IMG/VR virus record: IMGVR_UViG_3300045988_119128
Coordinates: 1 to 21,658 of that record
From: a virus
Lineage: Duplodnaviria; Heunggongvirae; Uroviricota; Caudoviricetes
Strand: one strand, 5' to 3'
DNA: 21,658 bases
In this document: positions 3,227-17,773 of the stretch, piece after piece
Layout: the number at the start of each line of letters is the position of its first letter
How positions within the stretch are numbered: position 1 is the stretch's first letter
Notes under the pieces: generated by a model
Database searches by the model: none
The model's input: only the letters and a program-made list of their open reading frames with translations
What the model was told of the DNA's origin: nothing
Program-made: the position numbers and the translations under genes

Positions 3227-4012
3227 ATGTTCAGTGATAATGTGACTAATGCGTGGTGGTTTATCTCTTTGTATCTATTTTTATTAATAGCATTAACATT
3301 TATTACCTTTGGTAAAAGTAATCTTATGAGGTTTATTGCACATCATTTCAATTTTGAGTATTCAGACAGAAAGTTAAAAATGCTCGACAAAAAATGGCGC
3401 GACATTCAACTATTTAAAATAATTAACGGAATCAATGTATCAGGCATCGAAGATGTGAGAATGATACAGCAGGGGCTGATTGATGGAAAACTAAAAACAT
3501 CGTATTTTTTTCTTACTCGCTTCTGGGGTGACATAACAAAACCACCACACATAATTAAAACAATAATTGTAATTCTGTCCAGCATTATTTATATTCTCTT
3601 CGCATGTTATATACACAACAAACAATCCGCTATAGTAAGAGATGCCATAGGCATACCATATAAAAATATGATGTACTATGTTTATAGTGACAAAGTTCTT
3701 TTATCCTTCAACAATAAAACAGTTGAATTCAATAAAACTTATAGCCTTGCCGATTGCAAGAGGCTACGAAACATATTTATAAAAGACACACTTCCTGAGA
3801 TCGCCTGCAATAAGCTCTTACGGCTAAACGAGGAGGACTCGGAATGGTTAAGTCAGGAAATTAAAGATAATAACAGCCAAAAAAAAGCATTATTAATAAT
3901 ATCCCTCATCTATTTCATTTCAGGCCTGGTTATATTTCTGTCATATACAAAATTCCTTTACGCCAATAAGAAGGTTGTAGAATACAAAGCATCAAATAAA
4001 AATCACTCATAA
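3227..4012 (+). CDS. Hypothetical membrane protein, AT-rich moron at the P2 orf30 position
   Basis: 261 aa ORF on the opposite strand to the flanking late genes, visibly AT-rich. Strong SD GAGGAG at 3215-3220, six nt before the ATG. Three hydrophobic segments (about residues 9-28, 107-127, 222-243). Lies between S and V, where P2 carries accessory orf30. Confidence 0.7.
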   Translation: MFSDNVTNAWWFISLYLFLLIALTFITFGKSNLMRFIAHHFNFEYSDRKLKMLDKKWRDIQLFKIINGINVSGIEDVRMIQQGLIDGKLKTSYFFLTRFWGDITKPPHIIKTIIVILSSIIYILFACYIHNKQSAIVRDAIGIPYKNMMYYVYSDKVLLSFNNKTVEFNKTYSLADCKRLRNIFIKDTLPEIACNKLLRLNEEDSEWLSQEIKDNNSQKKALLIISLIYFISGLVIFLSYTKFLYANKKVVEYKASNKNHS

Positions 4013-10457: not shown

Positions 10458-12230
10458 ATGACCATCACCACAGACACCACTCTTTTACACGACCCGCGTC
10501 GTCAGGCGGCGCTGCTGTACTGGCAGGGGTTTTCCGTGCCGCAGATTGCCGCCATGTTGCAGATGAAACGCCCGACGGTGCAGAGCTGGAAACAGCGCGA
10601 CGGCTGGGACAGCGTTGCCCCCATCAGCCGTGTCGAAATGAGTCTGGAAGCGCGGCTGACCCAGCTCATCATCAAACCGCAGAAAACCGGCGGTGACTTC
10701 AAGGAAATTGACCTGCTGGGACGCCAGATTGAACGGCTGGCGCGGGTCAACCGCTACAGTCAGACCGGCAACGAGGCAGACCTTAATCCGAACGTCGCTA
10801 ACCGCAACAAAGGCGGGCGTCGCAAACCGAAAAAGAATTTTTTCAGTGACGAGGCCATCGAAAAGCTGGAGCAGATTTTCTTTGAGCAGTCTTTCGACTA
10901 TCAGTTGCACTGGTATCGCGCCGGGCTTGAGCACCGCATCCGCGATATCCTGAAATCCCGCCAGATTGGCGCGACGTTTTATTTTTCCCGCGAGGCGCTG
11001 CTGCGCGCCCTGAAAACCGGTCATAACCAGATTTTTCTGTCGGCCAGTAAAACGCAGGCGTATGTGTTCCGCGAATACATCATCGCCTTTGCCCGGCTGG
11101 TTGACGTTGACCTGACCGGTGACCCGATTGTCCTGGGCAATAACGGCGCAAAACTGATTTTTCTCGGCACCAACTCCAACACCGCGCAGAGCCATAACGG
11201 CGACCTGTACGTCGATGAGATTTTCTGGATCCCGAATTTTCAGGTACTGCGTAAGGTGGCATCAGGTATGGCCTCACAGAGTCACCTGCGCTCGACCTAT
11301 TTCTCCACCCCGTCCACGCTGGCGCACGACGCCTATCCGTTCTGGTCGGGTGAACTGTTCAACCGGGGACGCGCCAGCGCCGCCGAACGCGTGGAAATCG
11401 ACGTCAGTCATAACGCCCTTGCCGGTGGGCTTCTCTGTGCGGACGGCCAGTGGCGGCAGATTGTCACCATTGAGGACGCCCTGAAAGGTGGCTGCACGCT
11501 GTTCGACATTGAGCAGCTTAAACGCGAAAACAGCGCCGACGATTTTAAAAACCTGTTCATGTGTGAATTTGTTGACGACAAGGCGTCGGTATTCCCGTTC
11601 GAGGAGCTGCAACGCTGCATGGTCGACACGCTGGAAGAATGGGAAGACTATGCGCCGTTTGCCGCGAATCCGTTCGGCTCCCGCCCGGTCTGGATTGGTT
11701 ACGACCCGTCACACCGTGGCGACAGTGCCGGATGCGTGGTGCTGGCACCGCCGGTGGTGGCCGGTGGCAAATTCAGAATACTTGAGCGTCACCAGTGGAA
11801 AGGCATGGACTTTGCCACCCAGGCTGAATCCATCCGCAAACTCACCGAAAAATACAACGTCGAATACATCGGTATTGATGCCACCGGCCTCGGTGTCGGC
11901 GTGTTCCAGCTCGTGCGCTCGTTCTATCCCGCCGCGCGCGACATCCGCTACACGCCGGAAATGAAAACCGCAATGGTGCTCAAGGCAAAAGACGTCATCC
12001 GCCGTGGCTGTCTGGAATACGACGTCAGCGCCACCGACATCACCAGCTCGTTTATGGCTATCCGCAAGACCATGACCAGCAGCGGACGCAGTGCCACCTA
12101 TGAAGCTAGCCGCAGCGAGGAAGCCAGCCACGCCGACCTCGCCTGGGCGACCATGCACGCCCTGTTAAATGAGCCACTCACCGCCGGTATCAGCACCCCG
12201 CTGACATCCACCATTCTGGAGTTTTACTGA
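10458..12230 (+). CDS. P: Terminase large (ATPase) subunit gpP
   Basis: ATG at 10458 with GAGG Shine-Dalgarno gives 590 aa starting MTITTDTTLLHDPRRQAALLYWQG, matching P2 gpP length and N-terminus. Confidence 0.93.
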   Translation: MTITTDTTLLHDPRRQAALLYWQGFSVPQIAAMLQMKRPTVQSWKQRDGWDSVAPISRVEMSLEARLTQLIIKPQKTGGDFKEIDLLGRQIERLARVNRYSQTGNEADLNPNVANRNKGGRRKPKKNFFSDEAIEKLEQIFFEQSFDYQLHWYRAGLEHRIRDILKSRQIGATFYFSREALLRALKTGHNQIFLSASKTQAYVFREYIIAFARLVDVDLTGDPIVLGNNGAKLIFLGTNSNTAQSHNGDLYVDEIFWIPNFQVLRKVASGMASQSHLRSTYFSTPSTLAHDAYPFWSGELFNRGRASAAERVEIDVSHNALAGGLLCADGQWRQIVTIEDALKGGCTLFDIEQLKRENSADDFKNLFMCEFVDDKASVFPFEELQRCMVDTLEEWEDYAPFAANPFGSRPVWIGYDPSHRGDSAGCVVLAPPVVAGGKFRILERHQWKGMDFATQAESIRKLTEKYNVEYIGIDATGLGVGVFQLVRSFYPAARDIRYTPEMKTAMVLKAKDVIRRGCLEYDVSATDITSSFMAIRKTMTSSGRSATYEASRSEEASHADLAWATMHALLNEPLTAGISTPLTSTILEFY

Positions 12231-13264
12231 TGAGCAAGAAAAAAGGGAAAACACCGCAACCTGCGGCAAAAAAAATGACCGCCAGCGCCCCGAAAATGGC
12301 GGCATTCACCTTTGGTGAGCCGGTGCCGGTACTCGACCGCCGTGATATTCTGGATTACGTCGAGTGCATCAGTAACGGCAGATGGTATGAGCCACCGGTC
12401 AGCTTTACCGGTCTGGCAAAAAGCCTGCGTGCTGCCGTGCATCACAGCTCACCGATTTACGTCAAACGTAATATTCTGGCCTCAACGTTTATCCCGCACC
12501 CGTGGCTTTCCCAGCAGGATTTCAGCCGCTTTGTGCTGGATTTTCTGGTGTTCGGTAATGCGTTTCTGGAAAAGCGTTACAGCACTACCGGTAAGGTCAT
12601 CAGACTGGAAACCTCACCGGCAAAATATACCCGCCGTGGGGTGGAGGAGGATGTTTACTGGTGGGTGCCGTCCTTCAACGAGCCGACACCTTTCACGCCC
12701 GGCTCCGTGTTTCACCTGCTGGAGCCGGATATTAATCAGGAGCTGTACGGCCTGCCGGAATATCTCAGCGCCCTTAACTCTGCCTGGCTGAATGAGTCGG
12801 CCACGCTGTTCCGCCGCAAGTATTACGAAAACGGCGCACATGCCGGATACATCATGTACGTCACTGATGCCGTGCAGGATCGCAACGATATCGAAATGCT
12901 TCGCGAAAACATGGTGAAGTCGAAAGGCCGCAACAACTTTAAAAACCTGTTTCTCTATGCCCCACAGGGAAAAGCCGACGGCATTAAAATTATCCCGCTC
13001 AGTGAAGTGGCGACGAAGGACGATTTTTTTAATATCAAAAAAGCCAGTGCCGCAGACCTGCTGGACGCGCACCGCATCCCCTTTCAGTTGATGGGCGGCA
13101 AGCCGGAGAACGTCGGGTCGCTGGGTGATATTGAGAAAGTGGCAAAGGTCTTTGTCCGCAATGAGCTTATCCCGTTACAGGACAGGATCCGTGAGATAAA
13201 CGGCTGGCTCGGTCAGGAGGTCATCCGCTTTAAAAACTACTCACTGGACACTGACAACGGCTGA
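12230..13264 (+). CDS. Q: Portal protein gpQ
   Basis: 344 aa ORF, same length as P2 gpQ; start overlaps the P stop; followed by terminator and cos. Confidence 0.93.
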   Translation: MSKKKGKTPQPAAKKMTASAPKMAAFTFGEPVPVLDRRDILDYVECISNGRWYEPPVSFTGLAKSLRAAVHHSSPIYVKRNILASTFIPHPWLSQQDFSRFVLDFLVFGNAFLEKRYSTTGKVIRLETSPAKYTRRGVEEDVYWWVPSFNEPTPFTPGSVFHLLEPDINQELYGLPEYLSALNSAWLNESATLFRRKYYENGAHAGYIMYVTDAVQDRNDIEMLRENMVKSKGRNNFKNLFLYAPQGKADGIKIIPLSEVATKDDFFNIKKASAADLLDAHRIPFQLMGGKPENVGSLGDIEKVAKVFVRNELIPLQDRIREINGWLGQEVIRFKNYSLDTDNG

Positions 13265-13291: not shown

Positions 13292-13432
13292 ACACCCCGT
13301 CATCACGCCCTCACACGCTCACCACCGCACAAAACACCCCGCAGACACACCAACGCCCCGGCGCACAATCTAAACGCCATCACGACGCGCTGAGACGCTA
13401 AAAAATAAAATCAGCACCACCGCCAGCGCGCA

Positions 13433-13451
13433 GTGCTTTCCCCGCCTCGCC
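13433..13451. other. cos cohesive-end site (packaging/termination site)
   Basis: GTGCTTTCCCCGCCTCGCC is the reverse complement of the 19-nt P2 cohesive end GGCGAGGCGGGGAAAGCAC as I recall it; the adjacent bases also resemble the start of the P2 genome. Lies about 170 bp beyond the portal gene, as in P2. Confidence 0.75.
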
Positions 13452-13667
13452 CGCCCGCTTCGTGGGGCGATTTTAATGCGGTTGCATGACAAATAGAAAT
13501 GCATGCTAGCCTTTACATAAGGACTACTTAGCAACACTTATATCCTCATGCAAATTCATGCAGGTTCTACATGTAATACTTTGTCTAGACAATATAAAAC
13601 TTGCACATGTTACAAAAGAAGCCTCTAAAAAAAGCAATGAGGATTCAGCCTATCAAATAACAAAATA

Positions 13668-14699
13668 TCACAAGAACTCAATTACAAATTCATTCTCTTG
13701 ATACTTACGTCCTAACATAACTTCATGTGCCGTTTCATAATTTGGCTTAACTTTTAAAGATGCATTATTATGTTTCAACAAAGTTTTAGCCCTGTACATT
13801 CCTATTCCGCTTCCCGCACGATTACTCTTTTTAGCCATAACACCAGAGTACCCCTCAATAAAGATCTTATCGATCTCATCAGGATTAATTACAAGGCTAA
13901 CCATCTTAAATGAAATAGATAATTTTTTTGTCTCTGTGTTTTTATCGAAACAAATCACCAACCTCGAATCAGGCTTAATATATTTAACAGAGTTTTCAAT
14001 TAAATGATACACAGCAACCTGAAAAGTCTCATAATCAATATATACCGTATCATTAGATTCAGCCACTTCAACACGAATTCCCTTATCCGTAAACTCAGGG
14101 AAAAAGACATACACTATATTCATTAAAACTCGATGAATACTATGATTTCTCAATGCTATTTTTGGATGCTCACTCAATAAAGCATTATAAACATCTATCT
14201 CAGCCTTCATCTTGAGTGTATTTTTTGCAATATTAACTAATGACAATCCTGCATCATATGGGTCTTCAGCCACCTGTTCTTTTATTCTATTTTTCCAACC
14301 CGCTCGCTTATCCTGCATAACTTCTTGAGGGATAATAGAGTAAACCTCTTGGATAATATGACCATTGAGAGTAACCAAGTTATGAATCAATCGATTAACA
14401 TGTTGCTTTGCCTCTTCCTTAGCCTTACGGTGAGCTTCTTGCACGGAAGGAATACCGTCAAGCAACATCTCAGCTTTAGCTCGTGCAACTTTCGAACTCT
14501 TAAGCATTGCATCATTTGCTGATATTAATGTTACAACTCCAAATTGATTGGATACTCTTACAGCTCTATAGGCAACTTTATTATATGAGAACTTAACTGA
14601 CTCTGCCTTCAGAGAGTTGAAGTGCTCTAAAAGCTCCCTCTCAATATTATTGACTAACAAACAACCATCTGTCGTTTCCAACTTATAATAAAAAGACAT
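13668..14699 (-). CDS. Histidine-kinase-like ATPase (GHKL family), soluble; cargo gene 2 of island
   Basis: 343 aa AT-rich ORF with ATG at 14699-14697, 12 nt after the upstream gene stop. Motifs by eye: candidate H-box LIHNLVTLNGH, N-box-like VYHLIENSVKY, G2-like GSGIGMY; no clean DxGxG G1 box. No TM segment. Confidence 0.65.
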   Translation of the reverse strand: MSFYYKLETTDGCLLVNNIERELLEHFNSLKAESVKFSYNKVAYRAVRVSNQFGVVTLISANDAMLKSSKVARAKAEMLLDGIPSVQEAHRKAKEEAKQHVNRLIHNLVTLNGHIIQEVYSIIPQEVMQDKRAGWKNRIKEQVAEDPYDAGLSLVNIAKNTLKMKAEIDVYNALLSEHPKIALRNHSIHRVLMNIVYVFFPEFTDKGIRVEVAESNDTVYIDYETFQVAVYHLIENSVKYIKPDSRLVICFDKNTETKKLSISFKMVSLVINPDEIDKIFIEGYSGVMAKKSNRAGSGIGMYRAKTLLKHNNASLKVKPNYETAHEVMLGRKYQENEFVIEFL

Positions 14700-14711: not shown

Positions 14712-15329
14712 TCAAGCAAAACTTTCTACAATTGTCTGGAACTGATAAGGATCTGCATCCTTTGGTAAAAAATCGTCTACCTCTCGAAGAGCTTTATGGA
14801 ATCTATCACCTGTTTGCTCTGCGGAGTAGATAATGATTTTCTTTTCTGGATATTTTGTTTTCAAAGCGAGAGCCAAGCCCAACCCTTCTTCGTTAGGTGT
14901 AATTTCAAGCCCAACCCCTTGTATATCAACAAAGATTATCTTAGCTTCCCTTATTTCGACTTGATCAATACTATCTGCATCCTTAATTAGCTTCGTATGC
15001 ACCCAACCGGCCTTTTGTAAAATCTTAACTACTTTAAATCTCACTTCATCATCAATAAAAAGTATTTTTGTAGTGTTTTTTTTATAATCCAGATCTTTTT
15101 TATCATCCACCATGGCATCATCCTTCTTAGAAGAGTCTAAGTTACCATTATAGATGTTCAAATTGACATTTTGTTCATTTGTAATCGGTTTGGAGTCCTG
15201 AACAACAGCCTGTGTTTGGCCTGAAAAGAACTTTTTCCACACGACACTCCCAAGCCACCCAACAATAGTTACACCAACACCACCAAAAGCCCAGTTGATT
15301 AAAGGATGAGAAGACGGGTCGAAATCCAT
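14712..15329 (-). CDS. Membrane-anchored receiver-domain (REC) protein without DNA-binding output; cargo gene 1 of island
   Basis: ATG at 15329-15327 with GAGG Shine-Dalgarno 6 nt upstream gives 205 aa (MDFDPSS...); the ORF-track start at 15386 is a TTG. One N-terminal TM helix (INWAFGGVGVTIVGWLGSVVW), a charged linker, then a CheY-like receiver: KILFIDDE, IIFVDIQG (candidate phosphoacceptor Asp), IIIYSA, LPKD. Confidence 0.7.
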   Translation of the reverse strand: MDFDPSSHPLINWAFGGVGVTIVGWLGSVVWKKFFSGQTQAVVQDSKPITNEQNVNLNIYNGNLDSSKKDDAMVDDKKDLDYKKNTTKILFIDDEVRFKVVKILQKAGWVHTKLIKDADSIDQVEIREAKIIFVDIQGVGLEITPNEEGLGLALALKTKYPEKKIIIYSAEQTGDRFHKALREVDDFLPKDADPYQFQTIVESFA

Positions 15330-15357: not shown

Positions 15358-15386
15358 ACTATAAACAAAATTCTTAATTCGATCAA
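15358..15386 (-). promoter_or_regulatory. Candidate sigma70 promoter for the island operon
   Basis: On the minus strand: -35 TTGATC (15386-15381), 17-bp spacer, -10 TATAGT (15363-15358), about 30 nt upstream of the REC-gene ATG, in the AT-rich gap after the A stop. Confidence 0.35.
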
Positions 15387-15496: not shown

Positions 15497-17773
15497 TTAA
15501 TAAAATGTAGTGAATCCACGAAACTCATTTTCAGATGAGTACACAGCTTTATAATTACCATATGAAATCGTGGCCCCGCGCGCCAGCGCCTCAAGCTCCC
15601 ATCGCTGCGGCCTGATACCGTTCTGAGCAAGGTCAACGCGGATACGAGTAATTTGCAATCGTTCCGACCGGGTCAGTCTGGCCGACGGTGCTATTTCATG
15701 TGGTTTTAACGGGCTTCCGTTTCTTTGCTGACGACTTGGCGTTCTCAGCCCGTGTTTTAATGCGCCCCTGAGCGTCCTCACGACCTCCGGGTCATTCCAT
15801 TCGATAACACCGTCATCAACCAGATTTAGCACTGCTGCGGCGTGCTCAGAAGGTGTGGGAGCCAGTAACGAAGGATCACCACCGGTGAGCTTTCCACAGT
15901 TATTGACAGGACTCCGAGGCGCGGCGATGCCGCTTTTTAAAGTCAAAGGCTCCACGACCGGAACTTTCGGCACAATGCGCCAGTCCGTCGTTCTGGTGAT
16001 ATGAATATGACGCGCGCCGAGATGCGGCGCGTAAATGCCGACCACTCTCTCGACTTCTTCCTCGTACTCGTTAACTTCATCCGACGGGCTACGGGCGACT
16101 CTGACAGTCTGGCAATCGCGCGGAACATTTGCCCCACCCTGCGCACTGATATACAACGCAAAATCGCCACTGTCTGCGGCAGCGCGTGCAGCCTCGACGC
16201 GTTCGTCAAACTCATCAGCAATGCTGACGCCGCGAGGCAATTTGCGTAGTTCACGGTAAGCCCCCATTGTCGGCAGACCAACCGTTTTAAATTGCGGGAT
16301 GCGCCACGTTGACGCCCATGCAGTAACAGCCGCGGCAGTATCTTTCAGCGGTCTGCCGGTATCGTTATCGAGCTGCCCATCCAGTGCATAGCCGTCGATA
16401 TTTTTTGAGATGTATTTCGCGATATACCCCGCAGCACCGCCCCGGTTAAGATGTTTTGCCTGAAAACGGTTTCGCGCGGCTCCTCTTTCGTCGCCATCCT
16501 CTTTGAGCGCATAGCGACGCATGATTTCGATAATCTGGTTACGCTGGCGTGGATTACAAAAAAGCATCATATGCCAGTGCGGCGTTCCGTCGTGGTGTGG
16601 CTCGACGACACGCAAACCGTAGGCCTGTAAATCATTATCCTTGAATGCCGTGCGCATCAGGCTCCAGATACGGCAGAGATAACGCTGCGCATCCTTTGGA
16701 TTAAATGCCTTATCGTTCCAGCCGTGATTAAGCTGAACGGTTTTACTTTCGCCTTTTCCGACCTGACGTGTCGGGTGATACTTTGACGGTGCGGTCAGCG
16801 TGATAAACATCCCCACATCACCCTCTGCAGCGGCGTAACGCTCAATACCGGCAATGGTGTTCATCAGCTCCATCCGGCGAATTTCAGGATTAGAAATACT
16901 GCCCATCACCTTACTGATAAGGTCGATGCGCTCGCCGGTTTCCTTATTTTCAAGGTCACACGATTTAAGAAATTCCAGATTTGCCTGGCGGCGTGCACGC
17001 ACATCACGAATGGCATGTTTACTGGCATAAGGAGAACGGTCTTTATTGACCTCCCCGACAGCAATCAGTAACGCCTCATGCCAGCGCATACGCTGGCCTT
17101 TAAGCTGATGAGTCCACCACTCATCGTTAAACAGACGGGCAATGGCAGAATATGCCTGCCTCGTGGTCATCTGCCCTTTACGGTATTTTTTCCAGTAGAG
17201 AGGGGAAATATTGAAAGCTCGTGCAGCGCCAGCAACATGACCATACAGGTGAGCCTGCGCCTCATCCGTAAACAGCGATTCTTTCTCGCCATGCGCATCC
17301 ACCCAGGCATCGCAGAGTTCCTCATACATCATGAAAAGCTGTGATGAGATACGGGCGGCAAACTTTTTCAGCTCCTTGTCATTCATTCCAGGCAAACGCG
17401 CATAATGGTCACGCTCTGCCAGAAACAGCAACGACGCGTCGGTGTTCATTTCATGGCGCTGATTCACACGCTCAATGCGCGGCCATAAACGACGCTGAAA
17501 AGTGGATGTGAGGAAATAAAACCCGTGCACCGGGCTTTTATTGCGCCGGATGTAGTCATAGCGTGAAGTAAACAGCGAGCGCAAAAAATAAGGCAGGCGG
17601 TTAATCGTGGATAAAACACCTTGCACCTGACGCATCTCGTCACGTGTAAGAGGTCTTTCGCGCCCGACAGCCTCGCGTGGCGCGTTCCATGCATAAGCAC
17701 CGGTAAACGTCTTACCGGTGCCTGCGGCAAATGCTGACGGAGGGACAAAACGCCCGGAGGCTTTAACGGCCAT
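15497..17773 (-). CDS. A: Replication initiation endonuclease gpA (rolling-circle Rep)
   Basis: ATG at 17773-17771 gives a protein starting MAVKASGRFVPPSAFAAGTG, the P2 gpA N-terminus; the ORF-track start at 17815 is a TTG. Contains HWH (PHWHMMLF) and tyrosine (AGYIAKYISK) motifs typical of rolling-circle initiators. The last ~23 codons are AT-rich and appear to differ from P2. Confidence 0.9.
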   Translation of the reverse strand: MAVKASGRFVPPSAFAAGTGKTFTGAYAWNAPREAVGRERPLTRDEMRQVQGVLSTINRLPYFLRSLFTSRYDYIRRNKSPVHGFYFLTSTFQRRLWPRIERVNQRHEMNTDASLLFLAERDHYARLPGMNDKELKKFAARISSQLFMMYEELCDAWVDAHGEKESLFTDEAQAHLYGHVAGAARAFNISPLYWKKYRKGQMTTRQAYSAIARLFNDEWWTHQLKGQRMRWHEALLIAVGEVNKDRSPYASKHAIRDVRARRQANLEFLKSCDLENKETGERIDLISKVMGSISNPEIRRMELMNTIAGIERYAAAEGDVGMFITLTAPSKYHPTRQVGKGESKTVQLNHGWNDKAFNPKDAQRYLCRIWSLMRTAFKDNDLQAYGLRVVEPHHDGTPHWHMMLFCNPRQRNQIIEIMRRYALKEDGDERGAARNRFQAKHLNRGGAAGYIAKYISKNIDGYALDGQLDNDTGRPLKDTAAAVTAWASTWRIPQFKTVGLPTMGAYRELRKLPRGVSIADEFDERVEAARAAADSGDFALYISAQGGANVPRDCQTVRVARSPSDEVNEYEEEVERVVGIYAPHLGARHIHITRTTDWRIVPKVPVVEPLTLKSGIAAPRSPVNNCGKLTGGDPSLLAPTPSEHAAAVLNLVDDGVIEWNDPEVVRTLRGALKHGLRTPSRQQRNGSPLKPHEIAPSARLTRSERLQITRIRVDLAQNGIRPQRWELEALARGATISYGNYKAVYSSENEFRGFTTFY

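Follow-up and report, generated by a model that had tools for sequence, protein, structure and literature searches.

Two-component signalling has already been found in phage defence in the form of Detocs, in which His-Asp signalling drives abortive infection and the effector is of the transmembrane (TM)-spanning type in a minority of operons (10.1101/2023.01.24.525353). Here, we analysed a stretch of 21,658 nucleotides from a virus of the Caudoviricetes (IMG/VR record IMGVR_UViG_3300045988_119128, positions 1 to 21,658; this whole stretch is referred to as the window), which carries a gene pair encoding a receiver protein with an N-terminal hydrophobic helix and a soluble histidine kinase. Detocs is the closest validated system, of which the locus is not a member. 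The pair is a member of PDC-M43, as judged from the same gene order, the same two-gene make-up and full-length matches (10.1101/2024.01.29.577857). The 145 candidates of the PDC set derive from genes located inside BREX, DISARM or type I restriction-modification (RM) systems (10.1101/2024.01.29.577857). Since PDC-M43 is already listed as a candidate, the locus adds no new entry to the catalogue, and Detocs is an earlier described case of defensive two-component signalling with TM effectors. PDC-M43 is a catalogue entry only: in the literature searched, we found no phenotype and no description of its domains, architecture or mechanism. A figure legend in the DefensePredictor study shows an unvalidated HATPase plus REC prediction, which may or may not be PDC-M43 (PMC13092281).

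The pair consists of two genes on the minus strand, the kinase gene lying 12 nt downstream of the receiver gene:

14712 to 15329, minus strand: receiver gene (PDC-M43A; WP_176600426.1), identified by its open reading frame and start codon, a PADLOC match and 463 homologues
13668 to 14699, minus strand: kinase gene (PDC-M43B; WP_113415494.1), identified by PADLOC, HATPase_c, an AlphaFold2 (AF2) model and Foldseek

The receiver protein matched the PDC-M43A profile PDLC04646 with E = 8.4e-82 (residues 10-205 versus profile positions 7-198 of 203), and the kinase matched the PDC-M43B profile PDLC04650 with E = 1.1e-172 (residues 1-342 versus positions 1-343 of 344). The PADLOC scan at E <= 1 returned PDC-M43 plus one weak PDC-M03A match and no match labelled Detocs, in a release that may lack Detocs models. 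A phosphorylation-controlled membrane effector is the most economical reading of this pair, because its architecture is conserved, it sits in a defence hotspot and no other conserved effector gene accompanies it.

The locus resembles Detocs in its cytoplasmic sensor kinase, and in Detocs, too, the receiver is fused to a module, there the killing one. Moreover, the conserved phospho-His and the phospho-Asp of the Detocs effector have candidate counterparts here, that is H106 of the kinase and D135 of the receiver protein. However, Detocs comprises three genes including the stand-alone receiver DtcB, which serves as a buffer, whereas the present locus has two genes and no DtcB. In DtcC the receiver is N-terminal and the effector C-terminal, whereas here the helix comes first and the receiver is C-terminal with nothing after it. 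DtcA is large, senses through TPRs and carries its phospho-His at position 645, in contrast to a kinase of 343 residues with a small alpha/beta N-domain and no Pfam TPR match. Finally, the usual Detocs effector is a PNP ATP nucleosidase, whereas no enzymatic effector is present here.

The receiver gene starts with an ATG at 15329, with GAGG five nt upstream, and its product of 205 residues is composed of an acidic tail (MDFDPSSHP), a Gly-rich hydrophobic segment, a linker and a C-terminal REC domain:

14715 to 15074, minus strand: REC domain, residues 86-205, with the D135 codon at 14925-14927 (Pfam, AF2 fold, Foldseek and NtrX alignment)

The AF2 model, built on 32 homologues, contains a (beta-alpha)5 domain at residues 89-204 with a predicted local distance difference test score (pLDDT) of 76-89. 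Foldseek against the PDB revealed receiver domains in 50 of the 50 matches listed, among them NtrX, DrrB, PorX, GacS-D1 and CheY, with a target-normalised TM-score (template-modelling score) of up to ~0.76. The family alignment of 32 homologues shows no variation at D93, D94, D135, S169 and K190, and a profile alignment places D135 of the 'IIFVDIQ' motif on the Asp of NtrX 'FLDI' at the end of strand beta3, which is the phospho-acceptor position. Matches of the receiver-family profile to PDB sequences were weak (best E = 0.03, to NtrX), so the fold assignment rests on AF2 and Foldseek. These models confirmed that the C-terminal domain is predicted to be a divergent but complete receiver, as the first-pass annotation had claimed for this gene product. 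The beta3-alpha3 loop (window 14883-14924, residues 136-149) carries a four-residue insertion after D135 relative to NtrX, and it contains the invariant residues Q137-G138-V139-G140, followed by E148-G149-L150-G151; AF2 confidence is low at residues 140-146. The majority-residue fraction of the receiver domain is 0.76 versus 0.49 for the helix, and it reaches 0.77-0.84 in the alpha4-beta5-alpha5 region. Neither Pfam nor the AF2 model revealed a DNA-binding or enzymatic output domain in the receiver protein. Besides REC, the N-terminal helix is the sole conserved element of the family, and the two are separated by nothing but a low-complexity linker whose pLDDT stays under 50, which bears out the earlier statement that the protein contains nothing else.

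The second conserved part of the receiver protein is its N-terminal helix:

15237 to 15302, minus strand: Gly-rich hydrophobic helix, residues 10-31, predicted N-out/C-in membrane anchor (hydropathy, flanking charges, AF2 and conservation)

This segment reads LINWAFGGVGVTIVGWLGSVVW and is followed by KK. Its Kyte-Doolittle 19-mer mean (KD19) is 1.46 and its Wimley-White octanol sum -5.7 kcal/mol, and the AF2 model shows a helix at residues 9-35. Across the receiver family, basic residues are absent before the helix, and two to five are found after it. By the positive-inside rule, this charge pattern suggests that the receiver is cytoplasmic and the N-tail outside, and the cytoplasm is also where the kinase resides. 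A Sec signal peptide was ruled out by the acidic N-region and by Lys/Arg residues that occur only after the hydrophobic stretch. Of 115 full-length homologues, 113 have a hydrophobic N-terminal segment, which is also present in the partners of distant kinase homologues from Arcicella and Robertkochia (Bacteroidota) and from Pectobacterium. W13, G17 and G19 are invariant in 32 gammaproteobacterial homologues. The N-terminal TM helix proposed at first reading is thus upheld by hydropathy, flanking charges and conservation, even if it is only marginally hydrophobic, and it is probably inserted in the membrane.

The kinase of 343 residues is built from three parts:

14514 to 14699, minus strand: residues 1-62, small alpha/beta (PAS-like) N-domain, presumed sensor (beta-beta-alpha-beta-beta-beta in AF2)
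14175 to 14495, minus strand: residues 69-175, helical DHp hairpin with the invariant H106-N107 (14379-14384; H106 codon 14382-14384)
13671 to 14153, minus strand: residues 183-343, catalytic ATP-binding (CA) domain of the Bergerat fold (kinase alignment and profile alignment)

In agreement with the earlier description, no TM segment was detected in the kinase, the maximum KD19 being 0.83 and the AF2 model fully globular with a pLDDT of 88. Foldseek matched the model to HK853, CusS, HprS, WalK and LOV-kinase chimeras with E values of ~1e-15 to 1e-10, and a predicted soluble kinase with a DHp-CA fold was thereby confirmed at the level of the model. Invariant in 28 kinase homologues are H106-N107, the N-box residues N236/K239/Y240 and the G2 glycines G296/G298/G300. 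When compared with solved HisKA domains, the DHp hairpin gave no sequence match, the best hit (E ~1) being ribosomal protein S17. RefSeq names the product 'HAMP domain-containing histidine kinase', apparently an over-annotation, with no Pfam HAMP match and no such domain in the AF2 model. The N-domain is the least conserved part of the kinase alignment, and a phmmer search with residues 1-96 against 1.8 billion representatives revealed no relatives of it outside the family. The same search returned one family member and three repetitive proteins, P0204 (1386 residues), P0205 and P0206, which match a ~30-residue kinase stretch (residues 44-75) in 5 to 17 repeats; these matches are probably a repeat or compositional artefact.

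The pair resembles the canonical EnvZ/OmpR and HK853/RR468 systems in the acidic pocket, Ser and Lys of the receiver, and in the DHp-CA fold, His, N-box and G2 box of the kinase. In contrast to these systems, the receiver is predicted to be membrane-tethered and lacks an output domain, the G1 Asp of the kinase is replaced by Met, no HisKA signature is present and both proteins score under the Pfam gathering thresholds. The earlier description of the pair as a two-component system of inverted topology holds in that a membrane-tethered receiver without output is unusual; its oddity had been overstated, as soluble histidine kinases are common.

Members detectable in sequence databases amount to 463 for the receiver family and ~80 for the kinase family. 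The gene order receiver-kinase is found at every locus read, L002-L012 included, with the genes 0-22 nt apart, and this two-gene order is kept from Gammaproteobacteria to Bacteroidota. Taken together, these data show that receiver and kinase form a two-gene unit under joint selection. A conserved third gene, such as a Detocs-like buffer or effector, was considered and rejected: the downstream genes for proteins of 174 and 175 residues in L003 and L004 are unrelated to each other, the other loci have different genes or none, and the window has no such gene. The homologous loci lie in the following contexts:

Kosakonia: same hotspot of a P2-like prophage
Pseudomonas cichorii: integrative and conjugative element, near genes for an SNF2/ZorD-like helicase and a mad2-like methyltransferase
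Rheinheimera: island with PIN, YoeB and HigB toxins, PDC-M05 and a FokI-like enzyme
Morganella: conjugative plasmid, beside ThsB-like TIR genes
Pectobacterium: among CcdAB and TacAT loci, with an integrase nearby
Robertkochia: integrase and UvrD helicase nearby
Vreelandella: plainly chromosomal, with housekeeping neighbours and no obvious defence genes

In the window, the pair is flanked by conserved phage genes and accompanied by a candidate promoter:

12230 to 13264, plus strand: portal protein gpQ, one flank of the hotspot
15497 to 17773, minus strand: replication endonuclease gpA, other flank of the hotspot
13300 to 13495, no strand assigned: cos-proximal segment of 196 bp, conserved boundary of the variable locus (94-96% identity to P2-like prophages)
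15358 to 15386, minus strand: sigma-70-like promoter match TTGATC-17 nt-TATAGT, ~30 nt upstream of the receiver gene; a consensus match only, with 10 such sites in the region versus 7.3 expected

Thus, receiver and kinase genes sit between gpA and gpQ, beside cos, in a P2-like prophage of E. coli, whose tail, lysis, capsid, terminase, cox, repressor and integrase genes make up the remainder of the window. The cos-proximal gpA-gpQ locus is the P2 old/tin hotspot, the cos assignment following the same study (PMC9122126). In E. coli, 1,650 gene arrangements are known from this hotspot, with several validated defences among them, and about a third of the cloned cargo was active against the phage panel of that study, in which kinase/response-regulator cargo is not mentioned (PMC9122126). 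The pair shares the insertion site and the low-GC character with the P2 old/tin cargo described there, whereas the proteins are unrelated (PMC9122126). GC content of the cassette is 37.5%, compared with 55% for the phage genes towards the portal and 48% towards gpA. Of 5426 complete E. coli genomes, one contains the full cassette and 2153 the adjacent 196 bp. RefSeq holds the same receiver gene in E. coli DETEC-P881 (NZ_CP116100.1) under the label 'hypothetical protein', which is explained by the high divergence of the receiver domain. The best explanation is that the pair is horizontally acquired two-gene cargo of the old/tin hotspot in a P2-like prophage.

Between helix and receiver, the protein contains a linker with a candidate internal start:

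15075 to 15230, minus strand: low-complexity disordered linker, residues 34-85 (pLDDT, low conservation and variable length)
15111 to 15113, minus strand: Met73, the only internal ATG, with AAGGA and a 7-nt spacer upstream

The linker is rich in Asn, Ser, Lys and Asp, with pLDDT below 50 at residues 37-75 in the AF2 model, a majority-residue fraction of 0.35 and a length that varies among homologues. Upstream of Met73 (15114-15128), the sequence AAGAAGGAtgatgccATG contains the Shine-Dalgarno (SD)-like AAGGA. A Met lies within ~3 residues of the Met73 position in 13 of 13 members of the enterobacterial/pseudomonad clade, despite the unconserved linker, and SD-like motifs before the Met are also present in Kosakonia, P. 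cichorii and Pectobacterium (L002, L004 and L010). Natural variants of the receiver gene occur in two metagenome contigs from independent samples (L011, 1273-2061; L012, 1695-2093), in which a stop codon is located just before a recognisable helix remnant, LGIWGGAGLTFFGWLIKKFF, and the downstream kinase gene is intact. Because of the stop codon ahead of the helix, these variants are called from the internal Met, yielding a receiver-only product of 132 residues. From these sequence features, we hypothesize that Met73 may be an internal start giving a soluble receiver-only isoform that could act as a buffer or antagonist.

In the mechanism that we propose, the soluble kinase would sense an infection cue via its small, fast-evolving N-terminal domain, and the cue would alter the phosphorylation state of Asp135 through transfer from His106. 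The Gly-rich N-out/C-in helix together with the ~50-residue flexible tether would hold the receiver at the inner membrane, where phosphorylated receivers would self-associate via the highly conserved alpha4-beta5-alpha5 face. Subsequently, the clustered helices would perturb or depolarise the membrane, thereby halting phage production in the manner of abortive infection. A comparable logic is known from Cam1 of type III CRISPR systems and from the TM effectors of CBASS and Pycsar, in which TM helices are combined with a cytosolic sensor and activation-driven oligomerisation damages the membrane. These effectors sense cyclic nucleotides via CARF, SAVED or cNMP-binding domains, whereas the input here would be aspartyl phosphorylation; the likeness is one of logic rather than of sequence or fold. 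For the full chain from kinase sensing to membrane damage and abortive infection, we estimate a probability of roughly 0.4. Its parts differ in strength. The pair probably serves in defence or against other mobile genetic elements (MGEs), and it is likely that His-Asp transfer takes place between kinase and receiver protein, whereas it is somewhat doubtful that the helix itself is the killing effector. The most specific version, a minimal immune switch in which phosphorylation clusters the tethered receiver, the single helix depolarises the membrane, and the Met73 isoform as a buffer and an odd kinase pocket may come into play, appears rather unlikely. The first-pass annotation had suggested a phosphorylation-gated, membrane-disrupting abortive-infection effector. 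This suggestion is partly supported: its first element agrees with the conserved architecture, the defence hotspot and the lack of another effector gene, whereas membrane disruption is presumed and abortive infection no more than plausible.

Several observations weigh against this mechanism. Both domain assignments fall short of the Pfam gathering scores, with 23.7 bits versus 30.2 for Response_reg (PF00072, residues 89-201) and 25.9 bits versus 26.4 for HATPase_c. In the G1 box (DxGxG) of the kinase, the Asp is replaced by the invariant M266 (codon 13902-13904) and a Gly by S268, M266-x-S268 being aligned to SrrB 'KDTGTGI' and YycG 'KDEGIGI' in the profile alignment. In GHKL ATPases, the G1-box Asp contacts adenine. 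Moreover, the residue following H106 is an invariant Asn rather than Asp or Glu, with Thr110 present at position H+4. Since Met replaces the G1 Asp, the nucleotide pocket would be non-canonical, and since the acidic H+1 residue is replaced as well, autophosphorylation with ATP is not assured. The sequence thus implies that the pocket may be non-canonical or the enzyme phosphatase-biased, and given the missing G1 Asp both kinase-on and phosphatase-off signalling are possible. As to the helix, a Hessa-type sum of ~+3 kcal/mol, in the receiver protein and in the family median alike, renders it only marginally hydrophobic, this sum being position-independent and approximate; the median uncharged run of the N-terminal segment across the family is only 16 residues. 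A single helix of this kind is a weak candidate for a pore. In addition, the W/G motif is absent from the Bacteroidota and Pectobacterium members. The ~50-residue disordered and unconserved linker implies that receiver and helix could be coupled by clustering or proximity only, allostery being excluded. The receiver is better conserved than the helix, which means that contact with a specific target fits at least as well as an effector role of the helix. Finally, the PDC candidates are untested by their authors' own description (10.1101/2024.01.29.577857), and our literature search did not find a validation of PDC-M43, of P2-hotspot kinases or of defence by TM receivers.

It follows from the conservation of the receiver above the helix that membrane association or oligomerisation is not the only possible effector, a claim of the first reading that was too strong. 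The helix might just position the receiver, whose phosphorylated form would bind a target of host or phage origin at the membrane, for example the DNA-entry machinery, a holin, or a complex for division or respiration; protection would then occur without a lesion and possibly without killing. Such a role would account for the receiver being the best-conserved part of the protein (0.76 versus 0.49 for the helix) on all its surfaces, including alpha1, alpha3, alpha4 and alpha5, for the unusual four-residue insertion with the invariant QGVG after D135, and for the loss of the helix motif in distant members; a long flexible tether is also suited to reaching a partner, and single-domain receivers such as CheY act through target binding. 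However, no conserved neighbouring gene encodes a target, a host target would need to be conserved from Enterobacteria to Bacteroidota, and the invariant W13/G17/G19 in Gammaproteobacteria exceed what an anchor needs, so that we regard this explanation as unlikely. The substitutions in the kinase lend themselves to yet another reading, which resembles a toxin-antitoxin (TA) system: acting as a phosphatase, the kinase would keep the receiver harmless, until infection inactivates or depletes it; the receiver would then obtain its phosphate from acetyl phosphate or a different donor and turn toxic at the membrane. The invariant Met266 in place of the G1 Asp fits this idea, as do the invariant Asn after H106 and Thr110 at H+4, since Willett and Kirby reportedly found in 2012 that HisKA kinases rely on the acidic H+1 residue for kinase activity and on Thr/Asn at H+4 for phosphatase activity. 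Likewise, the stop codon ahead of the helix remnant in the L011 and L012 variants would be expected if the helix-bearing form is costly. Yet the N-box Asn, the Lys-Tyr pair and the G2 glycines are invariant, which argues that the nucleotide site is under selection; the H+1/H+4 rule is not safely applicable, because the DHp hairpin has no HisKA sequence match; and with the receiver gene first, the putative toxin would be made before the kinase. Altogether, this second explanation appears improbable.

A role outside defence would make the pair a regulatory accessory of prophages or other MGEs that, for instance, senses host physiology and acts on an envelope process or on lysogeny. Such a role would suit the Vreelandella homologue, whose neighbours are housekeeping genes and none of them obviously defensive, and the activity of only about a third of the cloned hotspot systems against the phage panel used (PMC9122126). 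We nevertheless judge it very improbable, as the pair recurs on unrelated mobile elements beside TIR, TA, RM and SNF2 genes, the family was first found embedded in BREX, DISARM or RM systems, and the receiver lacks the DNA-binding or enzymatic output that regulation would call for.

If the proposed membrane-effector mechanism is true, the receiver protein would be the smallest phospho-gated membrane effector known and the pair a second defensive two-component family, with no detected sequence relationship to Detocs; the Met73 isoform may then act like DtcB from within the receiver gene. If the module defends at all, His-Asp signalling would have been recruited for immunity more than once, and a bare membrane-tethered receiver would constitute a complete effector, thereby widening the range of response-regulator outputs. 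If it does not, one entry could be pruned from the candidate list. The module is small (two genes, 548 residues), originates from E. coli, resides in a hotspot with established assays and offers its phosphosites as mutational handles. The Met in place of the adenine-contacting Asp raises the separate question of how far the ATP site of a histidine kinase can diverge.

A second low-GC insert is present elsewhere in the window, at 3227-4012 on the plus strand, with 32% GC versus ~56% in its flanks. It encodes a hypothetical protein of 261 residues (WP_075591738.1) with hydrophobic segments near residues 10-28, 109-127 and 221-239, for which there was no PADLOC match and in Pfam only a sub-threshold match to DUF6535. 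The tail and baseplate genes around the insert lie on the other strand, and the position of the insert is presumably that of orf30 in P2.

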